Shown here one piece after another: positions 4,010 to 43,793 of a stretch of 64,000 bases of DNA. The notes under the pieces are model-generated. The model did not search any database. It was given only the letters and a program-made list of their open reading frames with translations, and had not been told where the DNA came from. Origin of the DNA: Candidatus Saccharimonadales bacterium (GTDB lineage Bacteria; Patescibacteriota; Saccharimonadia; Saccharimonadales; UBA10212); NCBI GenBank assembly GCA_035717985.1, contig DASTHW010000016.1, forward strand, positions 65,859 through 129,858. Direction: 5' to 3'. Both the position numbers and the translations under genes were made by a program. Positions within the stretch are counted from its first letter, which is position 1; every line of letters begins with the position of its first letter.

Positions 4010-7000
4010 CAAAGTCTATTAAAGTACGCAAAGTTGTTCTGCTGGGCTCGGGCGGACTGCGGATTGGCCAGGCTGGCGAGTTTGATTATTCTGGTTCGCA
4101 GGCCATCAAAGCTCTGCGCGAAGCCGGCGTTTACACGGTGCTTGTTAATCCGAATATTGCTACCGTCCAAACAGATACCGACATGGCCGATAAGGTCTAC
4201 TTTCAGCCGCTCAGCTTAACTAGCGTCACTAAAATTTTGCAAAAAGAGCGGCCGGATAGTATTTTGCTGAGCTTTGGCGGACAGACGGCCTTGAATTTGG
4301 GATTAGAACTTAACGATAAGGGCATCCTTGAAAAACTGGGTATTAGGGTGCTGGGCACACCGGTGCGCTCTATTAAATTAACTGAAGACCGCGAGCTATT
4401 TAAGCACACTCTTACTAAAATCGATGTCAAGACCGCCAAAAGCCAGGCTGTCTATGATTTAAAGTCAGCCCTACGCGCGGCTAACAAAATTGGCTATCCG
4501 GTCATGATGCGCTCCGGCTTCTCTCTGGGCGGACTGGGCTCTGGGCGGATCGATAATCCAGCTATGCTCAAAAAACGGGCCAGCGAGGCACTATCGGCCG
4601 TACCGCAGATTTTAATCGAAGAGTTCTTAGCCGGCTGGAAGGAAGTTGAGTATGAAGTGGTCCGCGATGGCAGTGGCAATGCTATCACCGTTTGCAATAT
4701 GGAGAATCTCGATCCTATGGGTATCCACACCGGCGAAAGCATTGTGGTGGCGCCCAGCCAGACGCTGACCAACGAGGAATATCACCGCCTGCGCGAAATC
4801 GCCATCAAAACTATTAGCCATCTAGGTATTATCGGTGAGTGCAATATCCAATACGCCTTGAACCCGGCTAACGGCGACTACCGCGTGATCGAGGTCAATG
4901 CCCGCCTGAGCCGCTCCAGTGCTTTGGCCTCCAAGGCCACCGGCTATCCCCTGGCTTACGTAGCCGCCAAGCTGGCCCTGGGAGCTAGTCTAAATGAACT
5001 AAAAAATTCGGTTACCGGCACTACGCCAGCCTTTTTCGAGCCGGCCCTTGATTATATAGCCGTTAAAATCCCCCGCTGGGATTTAAGTAAGCTAAAATCT
5101 AGCGACCACCAAATCGGTTCGGAAATGAAAAGTGTCGGCGAGGTGATGGCCCTGGGCCGGTCCTTCCCTGAGGCTCTGCAAAAAGGCCTGAGGATGTGCA
5201 ATATAGGGGCCCAAGGCTTAACCGACCATCCTTTCACCTTCGGCGACCCCTTGAGCGAAGTGGCCGACGCCACCGATAGACGAATCTTTGCGCTTTATGA
5301 AGCGCTGGCTCAAGGCGCCAGCGTTGAGCGCCTGCACCGGCTATCGGGCATTGATAGCTGGTTTTTGCAACACCTAGCCTTAATTACTGATTTTTATAGC
5401 TTTTTGTCAGCTAAACCTTTGAGTAAAGAGTTGTTAGCTGAGGCGAAAGAGCTGGGCTTTTCAGACAGTGTGATAGCTAAAGCTAAAAATCTCAGTGAGA
5501 CCGCCGTCAAAAGTAAACGTCTGGCCTGGGGTATACGCCCGGTGGTTAAGCAAATTGATACGCTAGCCGGCGAATTTGAGGCCGCTACCAACTACCTTTA
5601 TATGACTTACCACGGCCAGCAGGACGACGTAAAACCACTGAGCAAGAAAGCCATCACCGTAGTCGGCTCGGGGCCATACTGTATCGGCTCGTCGGTAGAG
5701 TTTGACTGGTGTGCCGTAAATACGGCCAAGACACTGAGCGAAAACGGCTGGCAGACCATTATGGTCAACTCTAACCCAGAGACCGTGTCTACGGATTTTG
5801 ACCGTTCTAGCCGGCTTTATTTTGAAGAACTAACCCTGGAGCGGCTACTTGATATTGCTGAGTTTGAAAAACCCCATGGCCTAATCGTATCGGTCGGCGG
5901 ACAGATTGCTAACAATTTAGCTTTGCCTCTAGCCCGTGCCGGCCAGAACATTCTGGGCACGCCGGCCGAGCAAATAGACCGCGCCGAGGACCGCCAAAAA
6001 TTCTCCAGTCTGCTAAATAAGCTTGGTATTGATCAACCGCTTTGGCAAGAAGTTACCAGCCTGGCTAGTGCTAAAAAGTTTGCCGCCCGGGTAGGCTACC
6101 CGGTATTAATTAGACCATCATATGTGCTGTCCGGTGGCGCTATGAATGTGGTGGCCGGTGAGGAGGATCTCGAAATTTATCTGCAGGCGGCCGCTAAATT
6201 ATCACCAGAACATCCGGTAGTAATATCGCAGTTTATCAGTCATTCCAAAGAACTAGAAATTGACGGCGTCGCCGAGAACGGCCAGCTGGTTATTTACGCT
6301 ATTTCCGAGCATGTTGAGAATGCCGGCGTGCACTCCGGCGACGCTACAGTAGTTTTCCCGGCTCAGACGCTTTATTTAGAGACGGTCCGCCGGGCAAAGC
6401 AAATTACCCGCCAAATTGTCAAAAATCTAAATATCACTGGACCATTTAACATCCAGTTCATTGCCAAAGATAACGAACTAAAAGTTATTGAATGCAATGT
6501 GCGGGCTTCGCGGTCCTTCCCTTTTGTTTCTAAAGTCTCTGGCCATAATTTTATCCAGATTGCCGCCGAGGCCATGCTGGGAATCAAAAACGAGCGCCAT
6601 TATCAGACCTTGGAATACGACTACGTGGGCGTAAAGAGCCCGCAGTTTTCCTATAATCGGCTTAAGGGTGCCGACCCGGTGGCCGGCGTAGAAATGGCAA
6701 GCACCGGCGAAGTGGCCTGTTTTGGCGATAATTTGCAGGAGGCTTTTTATGCTTCATGGCTGGCTACCGAGCAAAAAGTCAGGGGTAAAAACCTACTCAT
6801 TAGTCTACCGGCCGAACAACAGCCCCGCTTCATCGACGAACTTGCTCAGCTAATTAAACAGGGCTGGCAAGTCTTTGCCACCCCAGGTACCCATAAATTT
6901 ATGGCCGAGTTTAACCTAGCGACTAAGCCGCTTTATAAAATCAGTGAGAAGAAAGAGCCCAGTGTGCTGAGCGCCATCATCGGCCAAAAGCTGGATTTGA

Positions 7001-7218: not shown

Positions 7219-8316
7219 ATGGCAAACAAGAATCTAGTCAAACCGTTTTATGATCCGGCCAAATCTTATGATGATAATTTCGATAACGGTCCGTTTGGTG
7301 CCAGCAAGGTAGAGCCTTATGTTAATCAGGGCGAGCCGCAGTTTAGCTTTCTAGGCATTCCGTTATATGCGCCTTTTGGTATTGCCGCCGGCCCCTTGCT
7401 TAACAGCCGGTTCGTAAAATTTGCGCTGGAAGCCGGCTTTGACGTACCGGTTTATAAAACTCAAAGGAGCATTCAGTTCCCGGCTAACCAATTTCCTAAT
7501 GTTCTTTATATCAATATTGACGGCGACCTAACGCTCGATAGGGCGGCTAAGCCGCTAATCGGCAGACGCTCAGCGAGTAAGCCGGTCAAAGAGTTAACTA
7601 TAACCAATTCTTTTGGTAATCCGTCGCGCGGGCCGGATTTTTGGACAACCGATTTAAAAAAAGTCCGGGCCTGTCAGGGCAAAGGTCAATTAGTTATTGG
7701 CAGTGCCGTAGGCAGTATTAAAGAGGGGTTCTCTAGCGAAGATTATTTTGACGACTTTGCCCTGGCGGCTGAAATGGTAACCAAAACCGGTGTGGATGTA
7801 GTCGAAATCAATCTATCTTGCCCTAATGTAGCCACCGAGGGCGTTCTCTGCTATACGCTAAACTCGGTAGTAGCAATCTGCCAGAAGGTTAGAGCCAAAA
7901 TCGGCAATAAGCCGCTAGTCATTAAGCTAGGCTATTTTTCGCCTGAGCAGGAGCCACTATTGGTGAAGGTTCTAAAAGAGGCAGCCGACTATATAAATGC
8001 CATTTCGGCTATCAATACCATACCGGCGCCGGTGGTTGATGAATCGGGTCGGCAGGCTCTGCCCGGCCCCAACCGGCTGAGCTCGGGTATTTGCGGCCAC
8101 GCCATTAAATGGGCTGGTCTGGATATGGTCAGCCGGCTGGCCGCTATCCGCAAAAAGCTAGGTCTTAAATTTGAGATTATTGGCGTGGGCGGCGTTATGA
8201 CGCCGGCAGATTTTAAAGACTACCGCGGTGCCGGCGCTGATCTAGTTCAGACTGCTACCGGCGCCATGTGGAACCCCGGGCTAGCCGCCGAAATTAAGAA
8301 AAGCCTGAAAGTTTAA
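7219..8316 (+). CDS. pyrD: Dihydroorotate dehydrogenase, class 1-like
   Basis: EINLSCPNV (class 1 catalytic Cys context), PLVIKLGYF and IIGVGGV are TIM-barrel DHOD motifs. There is an unusual ~45-aa N-terminal extension. A GGAG SD lies before the ATG. Confidence 0.85.
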   Translation: MANKNLVKPFYDPAKSYDDNFDNGPFGASKVEPYVNQGEPQFSFLGIPLYAPFGIAAGPLLNSRFVKFALEAGFDVPVYKTQRSIQFPANQFPNVLYINIDGDLTLDRAAKPLIGRRSASKPVKELTITNSFGNPSRGPDFWTTDLKKVRACQGKGQLVIGSAVGSIKEGFSSEDYFDDFALAAEMVTKTGVDVVEINLSCPNVATEGVLCYTLNSVVAICQKVRAKIGNKPLVIKLGYFSPEQEPLLVKVLKEAADYINAISAINTIPAPVVDESGRQALPGPNRLSSGICGHAIKWAGLDMVSRLAAIRKKLGLKFEIIGVGGVMTPADFKDYRGAGADLVQTATGAMWNPGLAAEIKKSLKV

Positions 8317-8322
8317 GATTCT

Positions 8323-9429
8323 CTAAAGCTGGTCCCCCCGGTTAATAAGTCGGCCAGTTTTAGCCATAATTTTGCCGTCAGCGACTAGCACCTGCTTGCC
8401 GATAACCACTTTTTTAACTTTGCCGGCGGCTAGCTTGCCAAGATACGGTGTCCAGCCGGAGCCAGACAGTCTAGTTTTTTCGTCGCCGATGCGGTGAATC
8501 TCCATCTGCCAAGTGACTTTAGTCGAGCCAGACAATTTCAAACCTATAATCTTCGCTGGTTTAGTAGATGTAATCTCGATAAGACGCTCCCGGCTAATGC
8601 GGCCTTTTACCATCTGGTAAAGCAGTAGCGGCAAAGCAAATTCGATACCTGGCACACCCCAGCAGGAACCGCCGGCATTTTCGGCTGTCCACTTAGCGCC
8701 AGCGCTGTGTGGTGCATGATCGGTCTCGACTATGTCTATAGCACCATTTACCAGCAGTTCGAAAAGCTTCTCGGCCTCTTCCTGGCGGGCCAGCGGCGGT
8801 TTCATGCGGGCAAACCAGCCCTCGCTCAGTGGGTCATGAGAAGTTTTAAATAAATGGTGCGGACAGACGCCGCAGGTTACCGGCAGGCCGTCGGCTTTGG
8901 CCTTTTCCACTAGCTCTACTTCTCGGCTGGCATTAACATGGCAGACATGGAGATGGTGACCAAATTTCCCCGCTATCAGTTCGATCAGGCCCGGCAGGTT
9001 GGTCTGCCCGGCGTGAAGCATGATGGGTTTAGCCGGCGCCGACTCGTGCCAAGCGCTAACAATTTTAGTGAAGTCTTTGGCGGTGTAATCTTTATCACTG
9101 CCAGTGGTGGGCGCACTATAAAGCTTTAGGCCAATGGCAGGCTTAGCCATAGCCGGCAGTTGGTCTAAATTATTTGATTCCGGCTGAGCGCCGGCGTAAA
9201 GGCCAACCGGCACATACGCGCTCTTTCTAATAAGCCTTTGTTTTTCGATCAATCTATGGGCGCTCCAGGTGGGCCGGCCTGGGTTATTTGGCATGTCGCA
9301 AATTGCTGTAAACCCGCCCAGCAGAGCCGCCCGCGTGCCGCTGGCAATAGTCTCGGCTTTATTGTCGCCAGGCTGACGCAAGTGCACGTGTATATCCACC
9401 GCTCCGGGAATTTCCAAAATCTCGGTCAT
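8323..9429 (-). CDS. pyrC: Dihydroorotase
   Basis: VDIHVHLRQPG metal-binding motif and amidohydrolase-fold histidines (HVCHV, DHAPH). Its start overlaps the pyrB stop by 1 nt. Confidence 0.88.
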   Translation of the reverse strand: MTEILEIPGAVDIHVHLRQPGDNKAETIASGTRAALLGGFTAICDMPNNPGRPTWSAHRLIEKQRLIRKSAYVPVGLYAGAQPESNNLDQLPAMAKPAIGLKLYSAPTTGSDKDYTAKDFTKIVSAWHESAPAKPIMLHAGQTNLPGLIELIAGKFGHHLHVCHVNASREVELVEKAKADGLPVTCGVCPHHLFKTSHDPLSEGWFARMKPPLARQEEAEKLFELLVNGAIDIVETDHAPHSAGAKWTAENAGGSCWGVPGIEFALPLLLYQMVKGRISRERLIEITSTKPAKIIGLKLSGSTKVTWQMEIHRIGDEKTRLSGSGWTPYLGKLAAGKVKKVVIGKQVLVADGKIMAKTGRLINRGDQL

Positions 9430-36645: not shown

Positions 36646-37263
36646 ATGAAAATAAAAAACTTTAAAAGACACCCGTATAAGATTACTACCCTTCTGCTGG
36701 CAGTTCTGGTCCTGCTCCTTCTGATTGTACTTATTGGCTATGGCTATAAAATCCGCGATTTGGACAACGAGCTTAACGGCGTTGGCAGTGACACCCAAAA
36801 ACAAGAAAACGGATTGGCCATGTTTCCGCTTAAAGTCTACATTCAAAACGCCCTTAAGGGCTTTTATCACGAGGCCGGTGTGGCCTCGGCTACCGACAAC
36901 CGGGTTTATTTCCCCGAGATGAAATTTTATTTGCCGCTGAATGATCAGACTAGGTCTCTGCGCTATCTTTATACATCCGGCGATAAAACCGCTCACCTGC
37001 CGGCCCAGGCCCAGTTCACAACGGTATTTTTCTTAAACCGCCTGGTTGATTCTTTCAACGATGTGCCGTGTCAGCAAAGATTAACTGCTGTGGGAATTAA
37101 TAATAAGATCGGCACTGACCTAACAACGGCTGGCAGTCTAAAAATGAGCGACGGCCGGACCCTATATTTTTATAAAAATACCGAGCCGGCTTGCAGGCAA
37201 TTCTATCAAGTCAGCGTCCCCCAGCAGATCATTAATCTGCTTAAAGAGGCTAAGCCTTACTAG
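36646..37263 (+). CDS. Membrane-anchored hypothetical protein
   Basis: N-terminal TM (ITTLLLAVLVLLLLIVLIGYGY) followed by a soluble domain. Its 3' end overlaps the convergent nuclease gene by 14 nt. Confidence 0.55.
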   Translation: MKIKNFKRHPYKITTLLLAVLVLLLLIVLIGYGYKIRDLDNELNGVGSDTQKQENGLAMFPLKVYIQNALKGFYHEAGVASATDNRVYFPEMKFYLPLNDQTRSLRYLYTSGDKTAHLPAQAQFTTVFFLNRLVDSFNDVPCQQRLTAVGINNKIGTDLTTAGSLKMSDGRTLYFYKNTEPACRQFYQVSVPQQIINLLKEAKPY

Positions 37264-38068
37264 CTAGTTTCGCACTCTTTGATTTAGTAGTCTTGAGAGC
37301 GTCAATTGTTAACTGGGTGCGGGACCGAGCGTAATCGCAAAATTCACAGGGCCTAGCGGGATTCATGACGTTTTTGCCGACCGGCGGAATTTCATCACTA
37401 TCCAGGCAAGCCTTAATCTTTAAGATAGTTGGCTCTACCCAGCTGTCATCACCTTTATAAGGAATTATCTTGGTTTTAAATTCCAGCACATCAGCAAAAC
37501 TTTCGGCGTCTAGCCGGGCATTGGTGTAAACAAAATAGCCGGTACTGCTGACATCAAAGCCGTTTTGGCGTAGAAGCCATTGATAGACCTCGATCTGGCG
37601 TTTATAGCCAATTTGCCAGTCGGCATCAAGGCTGACTTCACCATTTTTAGCAGTGGCCTTATAGTCCACTACCGTAAGCTCATTCTTCTTTAAATCTACC
37701 CAAACGTCGTCAATACCGCCGCGGACCAGCAGATTAGTCGGTTCATGTAAAAACTGCACGCCGCGGCTTAGAGCGTCCCGCCACTCATCAATTCTTTCAT
37801 GTTTAAAGGGCACTAAATCAAGACCGAGGCTCACGCATAGCGGATGCGGCGTCTGAGCCGAGCGGTGGACATCGAACTCCTTTTTAAACAGCTCGTCGAT
37901 GGCGCTATTGATGCGAAACGGCGGGCTGGAGGGGCGGCCTATTTTAAAGCGGGCATCCAGCCAAAAACAACGGGCGCACTGCATAAATAAATCAATCTTA
38001 CTGCGGCTAATCTTATACGGCTCGGTTTGCCCGGGACTGTATGGCTTTGACCGATAACTACGCTCCAT
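37250..38068 (-). CDS. PD-(D/E)XK nuclease with Cas4/AddB-like Fe-S cysteines
   Basis: GGIDD...VVDYKAT (D...DxK) and QIEVYQWLL (QxxxY) motifs, with CARC near the N-terminus and C...CEFC near the C-terminus. Confidence 0.7.
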   Translation of the reverse strand: MERSYRSKPYSPGQTEPYKISRSKIDLFMQCARCFWLDARFKIGRPSSPPFRINSAIDELFKKEFDVHRSAQTPHPLCVSLGLDLVPFKHERIDEWRDALSRGVQFLHEPTNLLVRGGIDDVWVDLKKNELTVVDYKATAKNGEVSLDADWQIGYKRQIEVYQWLLRQNGFDVSSTGYFVYTNARLDAESFADVLEFKTKIIPYKGDDSWVEPTILKIKACLDSDEIPPVGKNVMNPARPCEFCDYARSRTQLTIDALKTTKSKSAKLASKA

Positions 38069-38110: not shown

Positions 38111-38905
38111 TCAATGCAGAGTGCCGGCAAAAATTTGCCAAGCTAGAGCCGTCTGGGCGATGAGATTTAGCACAATCGACATTTTTTCACCGAATAAATA
38201 ATTTTCCCAGTGGCCGATTTTTTGCCGCTGAAAGCCGGTATTGACTATTAAGCTGGCGAACAGCAAAACCATGGTTATTAACAGCCAGTAGATATAAACC
38301 GGCAGAGAGCTACCATAGGCGTAAGCTCCCCAAAGGTAAAGAATTATTACCACCCAAGGTAAAACGATGGCCCCTGCCCCAAACCAAAAACTTAGCCAGT
38401 TGGCCGGCCGGACCACTTCCAGCAGTAGCCCCAGCAGGGCCGCCAGCGCTGTTAAGCCGGCAATCAATATTAGGCTAGGTAAGTCATAAATGCCAACCAG
38501 TAGAGCAATGGTGGCCATCATAAGCGCCGTACTGACAGCTAAGCCTATCCAGCGCTGACGATTGTAATTTACCTGCAGGTCCTCTTTATAGGTCCGGTTA
38601 AAGATGGTGGCTGACAGGAAATAGCTGACGCCGCTAACTAATAAGAATGCCGCCACTAAATACAGCAGGTTTATTGATACTAAATGATGGCTGGCTTGAG
38701 CCAGCACGGATTGACCTTGGGCCCGGGAGGCTAGATTATCCTTAGTCAGGTAGCTGATTGTAACCGGCCTTACACCGCTTGAGCCACGACCGATAAACAG
38801 CAAAATTATCGCCTGGATAATTAGCACTAAAGAGGCAAAAACATTAAACCGTCTAAGACTGAATCTAAATATACGCCAAGCCATAAGTGGAATATTGCTC
38901 TCCAT
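38111..38905 (-). CDS. Heliorhodopsin-like 7-TM protein lacking the Schiff-base lysine
   Basis: Seven hydrophobic helices. The C-terminal GHWENYLFGEKMSIVLNLIAQTALAWQIFAGTL, LSFWFGAGAIVLPW and RQRWIGLAVS match heliorhodopsin motifs recalled from memory. Gln251 sits at the Lys position. The start could be M1 (38905) or M8 (38884). Confidence 0.65.
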   Translation of the reverse strand: MESNIPLMAWRIFRFSLRRFNVFASLVLIIQAIILLFIGRGSSGVRPVTISYLTKDNLASRAQGQSVLAQASHHLVSINLLYLVAAFLLVSGVSYFLSATIFNRTYKEDLQVNYNRQRWIGLAVSTALMMATIALLVGIYDLPSLILIAGLTALAALLGLLLEVVRPANWLSFWFGAGAIVLPWVVIILYLWGAYAYGSSLPVYIYWLLITMVLLFASLIVNTGFQRQKIGHWENYLFGEKMSIVLNLIAQTALAWQIFAGTLH

Positions 38906-38940
38906 TATACTGCACGGCTATTTGAAATTTAAAATCGGAT

Positions 38941-38970
38941 AACAAAAACGGGCCTTTTATTGGCCCGTTT
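38941..38970 (-). terminator. Rho-independent terminator downstream of the YggT-like gene
   Basis: 9-bp stem AAACGGGCC (38946-38954) / GGCCCGTTT (38962-38970). On the minus strand it is followed by TTTTTGTT. Confidence 0.7.
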
Positions 38971-38992: not shown

Positions 38993-39334
38993 TTACTTGC
39001 GAGTGCGGCCGACCCAGCCGAGCCAGCTAGCAAAGCCTACAGCGGCTAGAAAGACCACCGCGTAAGCCGCCATGGCGAACAGGGCTACCCAGTCCACAAA
39101 CCAGTGGGTGGGAGGCGTACCGCCGTTAGCAGTTTGAGGGAACAGGCCCCTAAACGGCGCTAACGCGGAGTCCGTCGTAGCGTATATCCAGTGAAAGAAA
39201 CTGCCACTGGCAACAGTAAAGAAGAATTTAAAGAACACTCTCGCGAGTAGTAGGACTTCTACTAGCACGATAAAGAGGTTCACTGAGCTCTCCACCATAG
39301 CTCGTAGATTGACCCTAGTCAAAGAGAAATTCAT
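38993..39334 (-). CDS. YggT-like small membrane protein
   Basis: I moved the start to ATG 39334, 4 nt after AAAGGAGG. LLLARVFFKFF...IYATTDSALAPFRGLFP resembles the YggT pattern. Confidence 0.5.
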   Translation of the reverse strand: MNFSLTRVNLRAMVESSVNLFIVLVEVLLLARVFFKFFFTVASGSFFHWIYATTDSALAPFRGLFPQTANGGTPPTHWFVDWVALFAMAAYAVVFLAAVGFASWLGWVGRTRK

Positions 39335-39413
39335 CTTTCCTCCTTTAGTTGTTAATAAGCTCATAATATAACCGTACTAGTAATTTAGCAAGGAATTTTC
39401 CACAGCTAAAAAG

Positions 39414-39806
39414 CTACAGCTTAGGACGGGCATTTTTATACTCCAGCTCGTGAATCCGGGCATGATCTAAACCGTAGTAATGGGCGACTTCGTGCCAAAT
39501 AGTGTGGGCGAGCTTCTTTTTGAAATCCTCCAAATTAGCGCTAGCGCGGGTTAGCGGCAGGCGAAAAAGGGTAATTTTATCAGGCAGGATTTTGGCCGCC
39601 CCGCCCCGCTGGGGTAGTGGTACGCCTTCATAAAGACCAAACAGGGTCTCGTTGACGTAGAGATTAAGCCGCCGCCGCTGGTCAGGGGTTGGCTCGTCCT
39701 CAATTAAAAAGGCCACGTTATCCAGGTGCCGTCTGTAAAGATCCGGGATATTATCTATCGCTTTAGCGACATACGCCTCAAAATCTTTCTCGCTTATGTC
39801 TACCAT
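39414..39806 (-). CDS. Minimal zincin-like metallopeptidase family protein
   Basis: HEVAHYYG (HExxH) near the C-terminus of a 130-aa protein, with the layout typical of the small metallopeptidase family. Confidence 0.65.
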   Translation of the reverse strand: MVDISEKDFEAYVAKAIDNIPDLYRRHLDNVAFLIEDEPTPDQRRRLNLYVNETLFGLYEGVPLPQRGGAAKILPDKITLFRLPLTRASANLEDFKKKLAHTIWHEVAHYYGLDHARIHELEYKNARPKL

Positions 39807-39894: not shown

Positions 39895-40368
39895 ATGAAT
39901 TCAGCCGGCGACAGCGGCCTTAGATTAACTAGTACAGCGTTCAGAGAGGGGCAAACTATCCCTGAGCAATATACCTGCAAGGGTCAAAACATTAACCCGC
40001 CCTTAAATATCGTCAACCCTCCGGCTGGTACTCAAGGCTTTGCAATAATCATGCATGATCCGGACGCGCCGGTGGGTGACTACCTGCACTGGCTGATCTG
40101 GGATATCCCGCCCTCGACTGAGGGGATCAACGCTAACAGCTCGCCGGTTGGCGCAGTCGCGGGCTATAATCAATCCGATTCTCAGGGATATATGGGTCCC
40201 TGCCCGCCAGCCGGCTCCGGCACGCATCGCTATCAATTTGAACTTTATGCGCTTGATACTACCTTAGGTTTAGAGCGTAGCGCCAACCGTGAAAAGCTAG
40301 AGGCGGCCATGAGCGGCCACATCCTTGATCAAACTACTCTTACCGGTGTCTTTGCGGCCAGCTCTTAA
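39895..40368 (+). CDS. YbhB/YbcL (PEBP, Raf-kinase-inhibitor-like) family protein
   Basis: HWLIWDIP and GTHRYQFELYALD motifs. I chose the start at ATG 39895, 4 nt after GGAGGA; the track start is 39883. Confidence 0.8.
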   Translation: MNSAGDSGLRLTSTAFREGQTIPEQYTCKGQNINPPLNIVNPPAGTQGFAIIMHDPDAPVGDYLHWLIWDIPPSTEGINANSSPVGAVAGYNQSDSQGYMGPCPPAGSGTHRYQFELYALDTTLGLERSANREKLEAAMSGHILDQTTLTGVFAASS

Positions 40369-40853
40369 ACTGGCGCATAGTCTACGTGGCAAGCGCCCCG
40401 GCCAGTGCGCTCGGTAAATTTTTGATGATAAGCTTCAGCCGGCCAAAATTTACCGGCCGGTTCGAGGCTAGTTACTATTTGGCCCTTGAACTGAGACTTA
40501 TTAAGTCGGTCAATTATATCTTGAGCTGTTTGCTTTTGGCTGTCGCCCTCATAAAAGATAGCTGAGCGGTAATTGTCGCCTACGTCCGGGCCTTGCCTAT
40601 TTAGCTGGGTGGGGTCATGAAGCCTGAAAAAGTGCCTTAAAAGAGTCTGATAACTGACTTTAGCCGGATCGTATGTAATTTTGACGGCTTCAGCGTGGCC
40701 GGTAGTATGCGCACAGACTTGCTCGTAAGTAGGGTTACCGGTGTGGCCGCCGCTGTAGCCGGCTAAAGTCTCTATCACACCCGGTACTTGATCAAAATAG
40801 TATTGGACTCCCCAGAAACAGCCTGCCGCAAAAATAGCCGTAGCTTTAGCCAT
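40365..40853 (-). CDS. msrA: Peptide methionine (S)-sulfoxide reductase MsrA
   Basis: AGCFWGVQYYF active-site motif. Confidence 0.92.
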   Translation of the reverse strand: MAKATAIFAAGCFWGVQYYFDQVPGVIETLAGYSGGHTGNPTYEQVCAHTTGHAEAVKITYDPAKVSYQTLLRHFFRLHDPTQLNRQGPDVGDNYRSAIFYEGDSQKQTAQDIIDRLNKSQFKGQIVTSLEPAGKFWPAEAYHQKFTERTGRGACHVDYAPV

Positions 40854-41692: not shown

Positions 41693-42274
41693 TTATAGCT
41701 TGGATACGTACGGGTTGGCTCGAATATAAAAACGGGCCAAAGCTTCAGCCGCCCGGCTAACTCCGACCCGCGGGCCGATAACGATATCAGCTTTCTTAAT
41801 TGGTTCTTTTGGCGGCTCCAGCCAAATTGCAGTTTTACCTAGCGGCTGACCGGATAGTTTCGTATCCCTAATGCCTAGAGCCTGGGCTAATTTTCCCGGC
41901 CCACTGGCCAGATTTTTAGTAACTTGGGTTCCACGGTTTTTTATCATGATGTCGATTCCAGACACCGGCTCGCCGGCCCGGACTAGCACGCCTTCGCCCA
42001 CTCCCTTGGCCCCGGTGACAATATTAAGCGCATAGTGCATGCCGTAAGTAAAATAAACATAAAGGTGGCCGCCGGCCTCAAACATCGGCCAGGTCCGGCC
42101 CGTATTACCGCGGTATGAATGGCTAGCCGGGTCATCCTGATGGTAGGCCTCAGTCTCGACAATTTTTAGCTTGATAGTACCGTCTGGAGTTTGGCGGCAT
42201 AGGTGCCAGCCCAAAAGTAACGGCGCCGCCGCCAGCGACGGCAGTTTAACGATAGAAGCAGTTTTAAGATTCAA
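41693..42274 (-). CDS. mpg: DNA-3-methyladenine (alkylpurine) glycosylase, Mpg/AAG family
   Basis: IVETEAYHQDDPASHSYRGNTGRTWPMFEAGGHLYVYFTYGMHYALNIV. Confidence 0.88.
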   Translation of the reverse strand: MNLKTASIVKLPSLAAAPLLLGWHLCRQTPDGTIKLKIVETEAYHQDDPASHSYRGNTGRTWPMFEAGGHLYVYFTYGMHYALNIVTGAKGVGEGVLVRAGEPVSGIDIMIKNRGTQVTKNLASGPGKLAQALGIRDTKLSGQPLGKTAIWLEPPKEPIKKADIVIGPRVGVSRAAEALARFYIRANPYVSKL

Positions 42275-43793
42275 GTTTTAGACGCTTAACTAACCAATCC
42301 CTGGGCAAAATCGACAAAAACCAGCCAGCCCGCGGGCCTTGGTTTTTAGCTATAAGGGCCTGATAGATAGCCGAGAAAATATCCGGCGGTGGCAAGCTGT
42401 TTTGGTCTTTTAAGTCGTAGATGGCTTTATGAAACCATTCGCCGTCGGCGTCGGCTGGAGCCTCGGCGATTTTGCCGGCCAAGGCTTTTAAGAAATCTAT
42501 TTGCTTAGAGTTTAGTCCGGTCGGCGGCTTATCGGCTAGTTCAAATTTAACCTCGTCAGGCGCCCAAGCCGCCAGCCACCTGCCAATAAAGCTAAACTCC
42601 TGCTCAATCACCGCTTTTTGGCTGTTAACTTTCGAGCCGTGCTCACTGCGCCGAATAATTTCTAGTGCTCGGGCTGGGTCTTTCAAGCCAGCCTGGTAAC
42701 TACTGACCAACAGCGAGAATGGTACGGAGCTGACCACTGTTTGCTCAATCCCGTGGGTGCAGACGGCGAGTAGCTGAGCTTCATCCGGCGTTTTATCAGT
42801 TTTAGCCAAAAAGGCCGCAAACTCATCGATCAACTTAGTGACGCCGCCCACCGGATCAAAATATAGAGTCTTATCCGGCGGTGTAGACAGCACAAAATAG
42901 CGCACCACTTCCGGCGGCAAAACAGACACTACCTCGCTCATCAAAATGCCAGTACCGGCACTGGCGCTCATTTTCTTACTTTCACCTGCCCGGTTGATAA
43001 ATTCATACGGGACCGGCAAAGGCGCCGGCGCCTTAAATACTTTATCCATCAGAGCCTTGCCGGTATCATAACTGCCGCCGCGGGTAGCGTGATCCCGGCC
43101 AAACGGTTCAATACCAACTTTTAACAGCCACCAGCGGGCCGGCCAGTCCAGCCGCCAGTCTAGCTTGACCTGGCCTTTATCGTAAGCCGTTGTTTGCTGG
43201 TTACCATCTTTGTCGATGTAGCGGATCTCTTTAGAAGCTTTGTCGATACCTAAAAAGGCCCGTTTTTTTAAATATCCATCCTCATTAACCTGAATCGGCG
43301 ACCACTGCTCGTCCAGCTGGCGGCCGGAGACATCTTCCAGAACAGACTTAACCTCAGCCAAGTTATCCAGCACTCTTTCAATAGCCGGCACAAAAAAGCC
43401 TTGGCCGTATTTTTGATGGCTTCTGATAACGTCCATCTCAATACCCAGCGCTTTTACGCTATCTAAAAACGGCTCAAGCGCGTAATCGGCGTATGAGCGG
43501 CCCGAGTCATCCGGCGCCGGCATATCACAAAGCGGCCGACCCAGATATTTTTCATAAGCGGCCGGCAGGCCTTTAGGCACTTTTCTAAAACCGTCTTGGT
43601 CATCAACAAAATGCACATGCCGCGAGGCTCGGCCTTTTTGCTCTAGGCCAATGACTATTGCGTCGCAAATCAAAAGCTCACGCAGGTAGCCCATGTGGTA
43701 ACTGCCCGACGGCGAGATGCCGGACTCAACTAAAATTTCGCCTTCCGGAGCAAGCCGGCAGGCTGACTCGACTATGTCATTCAGCCACTGCAT
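42264..43793 (-). CDS. lysK: Lysine--tRNA ligase, class I
   Basis: SGISPSGSYHMGYLRE (HIGH-like), WRLDWPARW, EPFGRDH and KMSAS (KMSKS). This is the class I LysRS architecture, not class II. Confidence 0.9.
   Translation of the reverse strand: MQWLNDIVESACRLAPEGEILVESGISPSGSYHMGYLRELLICDAIVIGLEQKGRASRHVHFVDDQDGFRKVPKGLPAAYEKYLGRPLCDMPAPDDSGRSYADYALEPFLDSVKALGIEMDVIRSHQKYGQGFFVPAIERVLDNLAEVKSVLEDVSGRQLDEQWSPIQVNEDGYLKKRAFLGIDKASKEIRYIDKDGNQQTTAYDKGQVKLDWRLDWPARWWLLKVGIEPFGRDHATRGGSYDTGKALMDKVFKAPAPLPVPYEFINRAGESKKMSASAGTGILMSEVVSVLPPEVVRYFVLSTPPDKTLYFDPVGGVTKLIDEFAAFLAKTDKTPDEAQLLAVCTHGIEQTVVSSVPFSLLVSSYQAGLKDPARALEIIRRSEHGSKVNSQKAVIEQEFSFIGRWLAAWAPDEVKFELADKPPTGLNSKQIDFLKALAGKIAEAPADADGEWFHKAIYDLKDQNSLPPPDIFSAIYQALIAKNQGPRAGWFLSILPRDWLVKRLKLES

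Follow-up and report, generated by a model that had tools for sequence, protein, structure and literature searches.

We analyzed a 64,000-nucleotide stretch of DNA (the window) from Candidatus Saccharimonadales bacterium (assembly GCA_035717985.1, contig DASTHW010000016.1, positions 65,859 to 129,858 of the forward strand), whose order, Saccharimonadales, belongs to the class Saccharimonadia. Our subject is a gene for a heliorhodopsin (HeR)-like membrane protein that carries no lysine at the position where retinal is attached in canonical HeRs. The gene occupies a defined slot in the order LysRS(class I)–MPG–x–DUF427–MsrA–[PBP]–Zincin_1–YggT–HeR–PD-(D/E)XK–[x]–SerRS–SecA. Its open reading frame (ORF) was confirmed at 38111..38905 on the minus strand, with a product of 264 amino acids (aa) from the ATG at 38905. 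The NCBI copy of this protein, encoded on a metagenome-assembled contig of 132 kb, is identical but begins at M8 (257 aa) and is named 'heliorhodopsin HeR [Candidatus Saccharimonadales bacterium]'.

38111..38905, minus strand: lysine-less heliorhodopsin-like coding sequence (ORF, translation, PF18761, NF038020, AlphaFold2 model, Foldseek matches to TaHeR and 48C12)

The heliorhodopsin scaffold and the retinal site

The protein matched the Pfam Heliorhodopsin profile (PF18761) over its entire length (positions 1-242 of 242) with high significance (E=1.2e-56; 192 bits against a cut-off of 26.7), and it scored 183 bits against a cut-off of 100 with the NCBIfam model NF038020 'HeR'. No Bac_rhodopsin match was present among its Pfam matches at E<=1. 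When PDB sequences were searched with phmmer, heliorhodopsins alone were returned, with TaHeR (6is6/7clj) at E~1e-36 and 48C12 (6su3/6uh3) at E~1e-27; the protein is 31-32% identical to these two canonical HeRs. An AlphaFold2 model built from a 15-sequence alignment (predicted local distance difference test 84, predicted template modeling score 0.80) has seven transmembrane (TM) helices, a long AB beta-hairpin (strands 45-55 and 68-79) and a short BC helix (103-111), as is typical for HeRs. In Foldseek, this model superposes on solved structures of TaHeR (7u55/6is6; TM-score 0.83-0.89, root-mean-square deviation 2.0-2.9 Å) and 48C12 (6su3; TM-score ~0.8), and type-1 rhodopsin structures match it at merely E~1e-3 and TM-scores of 0.55-0.62. 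Counted on the model, the loops of the N-in side carry 11 lysines and arginines and those of the outer side 4, the latter all within the AB hairpin; this predicted bias fits the inverted topology of HeRs, with a cytoplasmic N terminus. Altogether, profile, fold and orthology identify the protein as a full-length HeR homologue. No second HeR or bacteriorhodopsin-like protein was found among the window ORFs of at least 80 aa, searched with the HeR hidden Markov model and with bacteriorhodopsin in phmmer.

To describe the retinal site, functional residues of 48C12 were taken from Kovalev et al. (PMC7049168) and mapped onto a 237-sequence MAFFT alignment. HMMER pairs LNLIAQTALAWQ with LSLVAKSALAWQ, placing Gln251 opposite Lys241 of 48C12 (K238 of TaHeR), and RWIGLAVS with RWVEYSLS, placing Gly121 opposite the counter-ion Glu107 of 48C12; the MAFFT alignment agrees with both placements. 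The residues concerned are the following.

38153..38155, minus strand: Gln251 (codon CAG), at the Schiff-base lysine position (HMMER, MAFFT column, DNA read)
38543..38545, minus strand: Gly121 (codon GGC), at the counter-ion Glu107 position (HMMER, MAFFT, DNA read)
38822..38824, minus strand: Leu28, at His23 of 48C12 in the Schiff-base cavity (alignments; coordinates computed from the start of the coding sequence)
38621..38623, minus strand: Tyr95, at His80 of 48C12 in the Schiff-base cavity (MAFFT; coordinates computed from the start of the coding sequence)
38165..38167, minus strand: Asn247, at Ser237, the SxxxK serine that hydrogen-bonds the Schiff base (MAFFT)
38552..38554, minus strand: Arg118, equivalent to Arg104 of 48C12, the kept TM3 arginine of the cytoplasmic polar cluster (MAFFT, conservation)

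Beyond lysine and counter-ion, the residues changed with respect to 48C12 are H23 (L28), H80 (Y95), S237 (N247), Y108 (L122), N138 (T152), M141 (A155), I142 (A156) and Q213 (T223), and those kept are N16, Y92, N101, R104, W105, E149, W173, Y179, D127, Q216, Y226, E230, W246 and Q247. Arg118 belongs to a cytoplasmic polar cluster that also comprises Y106, N21, N115, E163, Y236 and E240. It stands at R104, given by the Chazan et al. survey as its second required position, and Arg fills this column in 96% of lysine-less relatives. As read from its sequence, the protein fails the features that define HeR photoreceptors, namely the lysine, the counter-ion and both histidines.

The protein has four lysines in all. 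In the AlphaFold2 model, K55 falls in the AB hairpin, K107 in the BC-loop helix, K229 at the cytoplasmic end of TM6 and K241 at the cytoplasmic start of TM7. When all four are placed on the secondary structure of the model, none lies in a TM core; with Gln251 at the lysine position, no retinylidene Schiff base is therefore possible, and covalent retinal linkage is excluded on these grounds. For the alignment to be misleading, the protein would have to remain a retinylidene protein that uses another lysine. The sole point for this is the general precedent of engineered animal opsins, which tolerate a shift of the lysine to another position. HMMER alignments to three PDB sequences, the Pfam and NCBIfam profiles and the 237-sequence alignment independently agree, the flanking motif A-x-[ST]-A-L-A-W-Q is unambiguous, lysines 55, 107, 229 and 241 all lie outside TM cores, and the counter-ion and both histidines are gone too, all of which makes such a protein barely credible. 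K229 and K241 in particular were ruled out as a relocated Schiff-base lysine, both lying at cytoplasmic helix ends. A first-pass annotation of this DNA, made from the sequence by a model, had described a heliorhodopsin-like protein with seven TM helices, Gln251 (CAG, 38155-38153) at the Schiff-base lysine, Gly121 (GGC, 38545-38543) at the counter-ion, no conserved equivalents of His23 and His80 and no capacity to bind retinal covalently, and the profile, the model, the alignments and the DNA read bear out this description.

Lysine-less orthologues in a conserved genomic slot

We further examined how far the loss of the lysine extends. Among the first 95 homologues, Gln stands at the lysine column in P0001-P0008 and P0010, and Leu in P0018. 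The Q-type proteins P0002-P0008 all have Gln, encoded among relatives by CAG as well as CAA, and are 44-60% identical to the window protein; the counter-ion Glu is retained in P0004-P0008 and is Ser or Gly in P0002, P0003 and the window protein. A library of 1.84 billion representatives, searched with a profile of ten lysine-less proteins, yielded 3352 family matches. Within the best 150 of these, the lysine is absent from 80 of the 146 full-length proteins and present in 65, a fraction biased upward by the lysine-less query profile. Lysine-less forms make up at least 80 clusters at 50% identity, and the residue replacing the lysine is Q, S, T, A, L, I, V, M, Y, N, E, R, H, G or P. A second homologue search with an 87-sequence lysine-less profile returned almost exclusively Lys-type HeRs and one new lysine-less protein, P0255. 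In a genome-contig scan with back-translated motifs common to both kinds, which served for synteny and not for counting lysine-less forms, 78 of 80 loci were Lys-type. The window protein is thus not an isolated case but one of many lysine-less HeR homologues, among them a clade of its own orthologues.

Lysine-less type-1 opsins are already known, and full-text literature searches, subscription-only papers aside, found no description of lysine-less heliorhodopsins, consistent with the first-pass remark that no characterized one was known. Chiriac et al. (2022) checked HeRs of the Candidate Phyla Radiation (CPR) for SxxxK and reported just the commonest Lys motifs; its supplements contain no TM7 motif strings. 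Since published HeR surveys require or check for the lysine, the lysine-less group was filtered out rather than studied.

Every lysine-less representative with retrievable context occupies the same slot as the window gene. In other Saccharimonadia, the gene order is the same with small insertions such as FMN reductase, HAD or TrmA, and this core-genome slot houses canonical Lys/Glu HeRs or lysine-less ones depending on the genome. Slot loci are given below with their residues at the lysine and counter-ion positions; L001, L003, L006 and L010 encode P0002, P0010, P0009 and P0255, respectively.

Lysine-less: L001/L009 Q/S; L108 Q/G; L002 and L008 Q/E; L010 A/E
Lysine-less: L003 Q/G; L007 L/G; L090 A/G; L091 Y/E; L092 Q/Q
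Lysine-less: L089 S/S (NCBI MBA3757600.1, Ca. Saccharibacteria)
Canonical Lys: L006, L011, L021, L039, L052, L053, L057 and L074, all K/E; L069 K/D

One of these records, L009 (DATKKU010000031.1), is labeled 'Candidatus Binatia bacterium SMAG_U14666'. It has a Saccharimonadia gene order and an HeR-like protein almost identical to that of the JGI contig L001 (nonsynonymous divergence, dN, 0.01), and the contig was probably mis-binned or the metagenome-assembled genome (MAG) mislabeled.

Lys-type slot orthologues (L006, L011, L021, L052) are 40-45% identical to the window protein, and a bootstrapped neighbor-joining tree of 18 syntenic slot orthologues intermingles the two kinds. The lysine-less clade of the window (90% bootstrap) has the Lys-type L006 as its sister (77%), the lysine-less L007 and L090 group with the Lys-type L069 (88%), and monophyly of all lysine-less forms receives 0%. 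Fast-evolving sequences attract each other in such trees, and this non-monophyly is therefore conservative. A neighbor-joining tree of 237 distant representatives, with 35 parsimony changes, was too noisy to count losses. At a shorter scale, L003 (Q/G, 8001-8855) and L011 (K/E, 6001-6753), whose genomes are closely related, have identical local gene orders, with neighbors 58-88% identical and HeR genes 64% identical. L003 still has H23, H80, S76 and S237 and, because it keeps these cavity histidines and serines, looks like a recent, early-stage loss. We conclude that the lysine was lost at least 2-3 times independently within the slot, and that the change of Lys to Gln together with Glu to Gly is convergent between the lineage of the window and L003.

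The genes and signals around the window gene are the following.

37250..38068, minus strand: PD-(D/E)XK nuclease, downstream neighbor 42 nucleotides (nt) past the stop (PF12705 E=1.5e-8; weak TIGR00372, Cas4-like)
38904..38933, minus strand: promoter-like TTTAAA-18 nt-TATAAT, directly upstream of and overlapping ATG M1 (10 of 12 consensus matches)
38946..38970, minus strand: intrinsic terminator after YggT (GC-rich stem of 10-11 bp, then a U run; folding energy -21.4 kcal/mol, z -4.7)
38993..39364, minus strand: YggT-like small membrane protein, upstream neighbor (PF02325 E=1.4e-5, just under the gathering score)
39414..39806, minus strand: Zincin_1 metallopeptidase-like protein, part of the slot (PF06262 E=3.6e-23; synteny)
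40365..40853, minus strand: MsrA (methionine sulfoxide reductase A), upstream of the HeR slot (62-73% identical to PF01625 genes of related loci)

The HeR-like gene seems, from these sequence signals, to have its own promoter, and a TTAAAC-type box recurs in the YggT-HeR intergenic region of relatives. Because the putative -10 element overlaps ATG M1, the true start may be M8 (ATG 38884, 257 aa), as in the NCBI record. Terminators equivalent to the one between YggT and the HeR-like gene were found at six related loci (L001, L002, the Lys-type L006, L008, L089 and L108). YggT is syntenic in the clade of the window and in its Lys-type sister, with PF02325 called at the same six loci. The YggT-like neighbor proposed by the first-pass annotation is thus present and adjacent; shared transcription with the HeR-like gene is unlikely, since a strong terminator lies between the two. 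No terminator was detected between the HeR-like gene and the PD-(D/E)XK gene, which is conserved downstream of the HeR gene at nearly all syntenic loci, and the two may be co-transcribed. The nuclease, with its weak Cas4 similarity, has a CxxC near both ends ('QCARCF' and 'PCEFCDY'); an Fe-S cluster, as the first-pass annotation has it, is plausible. Its 3' end is overlapped by 14 nt by a convergent 205-aa ORF (36646-37263, plus strand) with an N-terminal hydrophobic segment, for which neither Pfam nor NCBIfam returned a match.

Several Saccharimonadia, Lys-type and lysine-less, have MsrA immediately upstream of the HeR gene (L091 5490-6888; L092 4923-6258; L052; L053), with a gap of 28 nt in L091 and L092; Zincin_1 and YggT are inserted between them in the clade of the window. 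This adjacency could reflect a functional pair or plain synteny. Further along the slot, the position after GreA holds a class I LysRS (PF01921) in the window (42264-43793, minus strand), L001, L002, L008, L089 and L091, and elsewhere a class-II-type synthetase of ~505 aa (PF01336+PF00152; L007 2526-4043, L090 4986-6536, L092 360-1868), which looks as though one LysRS class had been replaced in situ by the other.

Selection and retained constraint

We then considered the selective regime acting on lysine-less genes. A scan of metagenome contigs with the window protein gave a best match of 37% identity; because no close relative of its own lineage turned up there, the ratio of nonsynonymous to synonymous divergence (dN/dS) was taken from L001 and L009, both Q/S. 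This pair differs by dN 0.01 and dS 0.26, for a dN/dS of 0.04. In distant lysine-less pairs, the proportion of synonymous differences is saturated (pS 0.76-0.89) with a nonsynonymous proportion pN of 0.14-0.35, and third codon positions differ 2-6 times as often as second positions between lysine-less pairs. Between the window and L001, the HeR-like proteins are 58% identical, compared with 61-75% for ProRS, GreA, LysRS, MsrA and Zincin_1, 38% for YggT and 48% for PD-(D/E)XK. When HeR identity is divided by neighbor identity across all syntenic pairs, Lys-Lys pairs give 0.97, lysine-less pairs 0.82 and mixed pairs 0.79. The lysine-less orthologues are thus moderately accelerated and not decaying.

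These values bear on whether the gene is a functionless relic on its way to loss in a dark-living lineage. Lysine-less orthologues evolve ~15% faster relative to their neighbors, and the nearest relatives come from soil, a dark habitat that would fit a loss of photoreception: the SMAG label of L009 is one that we take to denote a soil MAG catalogue, and the closest lysine-less relative, P0002 (L001), is from sample Ga0335070. That sample is Everglades soil (PMC8067648). HeR surveys also view lysine-less sequences as possible pseudogenes. A decaying gene is nevertheless difficult to reconcile with a dN/dS of 0.04 between two lysine-less orthologues, with full-length, intact ORFs in every lysine-less relative examined, at 30-60% identity to the window protein, and with an identity to L001 on par with housekeeping neighbors and above YggT and PD-(D/E)XK. 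The promoter-like site and the upstream terminator are retained as well, and dead genes would be expected to disappear from the streamlined genomes of the CPR. Taken together, these points leave decay very improbable.

Where constraint was relaxed is more specific. Lysine-less proteins gained 1.05 bits of entropy at 18 retinal and Schiff-base positions against 0.24 bits at 141 other TM positions (Mann-Whitney p=2.8e-6), an absolute comparison complicated by the composition of the sets, since the Lys-type set spans many phyla and the lysine-less set is apparently Saccharimonadia only. Within lysine-less proteins, the entropy of pocket positions (2.34 bits) is on a par with that of generic TM positions (2.14 bits). 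In 48C12 numbering, the most relaxed positions are K241, E107, S237, Y108, S111, H80, F206, F72 and M115, and the most conserved are G124, W105, Y92, R104, L253, W246, L131, E230, W223, G221, N16, E149, Q26, D127 and Y179. Constraint was kept at the cytoplasmic polar cluster (N16, Y92, N101, R104, E149, Y226, E230), the dimer-interface pair D127/Y179 and the TM7 residues W246/Q247, all described as structurally important by Kovalev et al. (PMC7049168). The AB beta-hairpin is likewise present in the model, with its conserved positions retained. In the clade of the window, residues W174, W192, W207 and I220 mark positions that turned bulky. Altogether, lysine-less genes are intact and under strong purifying selection, and constraint was lost specifically at the retinal pocket.

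The state of the pocket also bears on whether it now holds a hydrophobic ligand non-covalently (retinal, a carotenoid, a quinone or a lipid), which would make the protein a ligand sensor, carrier or chaperone, possibly still related to light. Many pocket changes are to smaller residues and not to bulky fillers (E107G, Y108L, M141A, I142/N to A, N138T), and the pocket residues W105 and W173 are conserved in 97% and 84% of lysine-less relatives. A carotenoid-binding site was reported in 91% of HeRs in a 2025 preprint (10.1101/2025.11.27.691015), and retinal uptake from hosts has been proposed for Saccharibacteria (PMC9296517). However, pocket variability at the level of ordinary TM positions would not be expected if a ligand site were conserved, what replaces the lysine is itself variable (Q, S, T, A, L, I, V, M, Y, N and others), and small residues may instead permit a helix packing that closes the pocket. 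We consider a ligand-binding role unlikely.

A generic chromophore-free role of the opsin fold, such as phospholipid scrambling or membrane organization, would draw on the same pattern of conservation, which is spread across the scaffold and includes G124, L131, W246 and the dimer interface. Scrambling would be useful to Saccharibacteria, which depend on host lipids, and a proteorhodopsin is reported to have retinal-independent scramblase activity (PMC10730872). Yet the top-conserved residues make up a specific polar cluster on the cytoplasmic side (R104, E230, Y92, N16, E149) and not a lipid-facing groove, and lipid scrambling has not been demonstrated for any HeR. This speculative reading we regard as improbable.

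A proposed light-independent role and its relation to known systems

With very high confidence, we regard the window gene as encoding a selected, non-retinylidene HeR orthologue. The reading that we favor, with somewhat better than even confidence, is a heliorhodopsin-derived seven-TM protein that is no longer a retinal photoreceptor and has a light-independent structural or partner-regulating role. The retinal-independent relative on the HeR scaffold proposed in the first-pass annotation gains strength from the lysine-less clade, the shared slot, the dN/dS of 0.04 and the confinement of relaxation to the pocket. Partner regulation as the mechanism is a tentative proposal, made by analogy with regulatory HeRs. 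Under this proposal, the protein would be a light-independent, probably dimeric membrane partner or regulator, and it would preserve the chromophore-independent half of regulatory HeR action, that is, the binding of cytoplasmic or membrane partners via its cytoplasmic face.

Several observations weigh against a conserved light-independent role of this kind. Lysine-less orthologues evolve faster than Lys-type ones, so that part of the original function is clearly gone, and the entropy comparison suffers from the unequal sets described above. The FG loop changed from G[KR]W[KR] to GHWE in the clade of the window; any partner surface may therefore have changed as well. The adjacency to MsrA, YggT and PD-(D/E)XK may be plain housekeeping synteny, and YggT was downgraded as an operon partner in view of the conserved terminator between the genes.

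MsrA would be a candidate partner solely through its conserved adjacency. It is the sole stress-related gene that consistently adjoins the slot, and Bulzu et al., as quoted in PMC9166423, tied HeRs to oxidative stress. The whole region is syntenic housekeeping DNA, and MsrA is therefore a lead only. A bolder idea, which we hold to be rather doubtful, is that the HeR fold has a conserved light-independent core function, exerted through the R104/E230/Y92/N16/E149 cluster and the dimer, for example in regulating or anchoring MsrA. Retinal sensing would then be a modulatory add-on that was repeatedly shed by Saccharimonadia, including at least some soil members.

The physiological role of heliorhodopsins is debated, with sensor, enzyme regulator, transporter and antenna protein all proposed. 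The large conserved group of lysine-less proteins suggests that this family serves a light-independent function as well. Lys-type and lysine-less orthologues in one slot amount to a natural experiment on what in the protein is important once retinal is gone, and matched pairs such as L003/L011 suit biochemical comparison and back-mutation. Under the bolder idea given above, lysine-less orthologues would be natural 'dark-locked' HeRs that separate the primary HeR function from photochemistry. There is also a consequence for annotation. NF038020 is typed as an equivalog and yet scores lysine-less proteins far above its cut-off, so that the NCBI annotation pipeline PGAP gives the name 'heliorhodopsin HeR' to proteins incapable of binding retinal, such as P0001 and MBA3757600.1. 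The window protein should not be annotated as a functional rhodopsin, and counts of 'rhodopsin-bearing' CPR genomes would be inflated or deflated according to the filter, one survey requiring the lysine and another checking it.

Compared with the canonical HeRs 48C12 and TaHeR, the window protein shares the Pfam and NCBIfam family, seven TM helices, the N-in bias, the AB beta-hairpin and the BC helix, but lacks Lys241 (Gln), Glu107 (Gly), His23 (Leu), His80 (Tyr) and Ser237 (Asn). Lys-type slot orthologues lie in the same position as the window gene, between MsrA/Zincin/YggT and PD-(D/E)XK/SerRS/SecA, while keeping the lysine, the Glu (Asp in L069) and usually both histidines, and they evolve more slowly relative to their neighbors (0.97 vs 0.82).

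Regulatory HeRs offer a model for how such a scaffold could act without ion transport, via residues on the cytoplasmic side. AbHeR regulates glutamine synthetase in a manner that depends on charged cytoplasmic-loop residues (PMC9529153), OcHeR is reported to act with the OmrDE ABC transporter (PMC11109279), and TfHeR is described as a photolyase helper in the abstract of PMC9769723. These proteins are retinal-bound and light-modulated, with partners encoded in the same operon, whereas the window protein has no chromophore site. None of the genes for glutamine synthetase, photolyase or OmrDE is adjacent to the window gene, and its FG loop is GHWE rather than Lys/Arg-rich.

The lysine-less type-1 opsins, namely the haloarchaeal and fungal class of Becker et al. 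(2016; PMC4915679), Rh-noK and the freshwater FArhodopsins (PMC10308929), likewise retain the scaffold without the Schiff-base lysine. They are widespread and not sporadic, and non-light sensory or regulatory roles have been proposed for them (PMC4915679, PMC10308929). Rh-noK reportedly regains pumping once the lysine is restored, whereas in the window protein the counter-ion and the pocket are degraded too. Type-1 opsins belong to a different family (Bac_rhodopsin) and have the opposite membrane orientation. Lysine-less HeRs parallel lysine-less type-1 opsins by analogy, a likeness of process and not of family.

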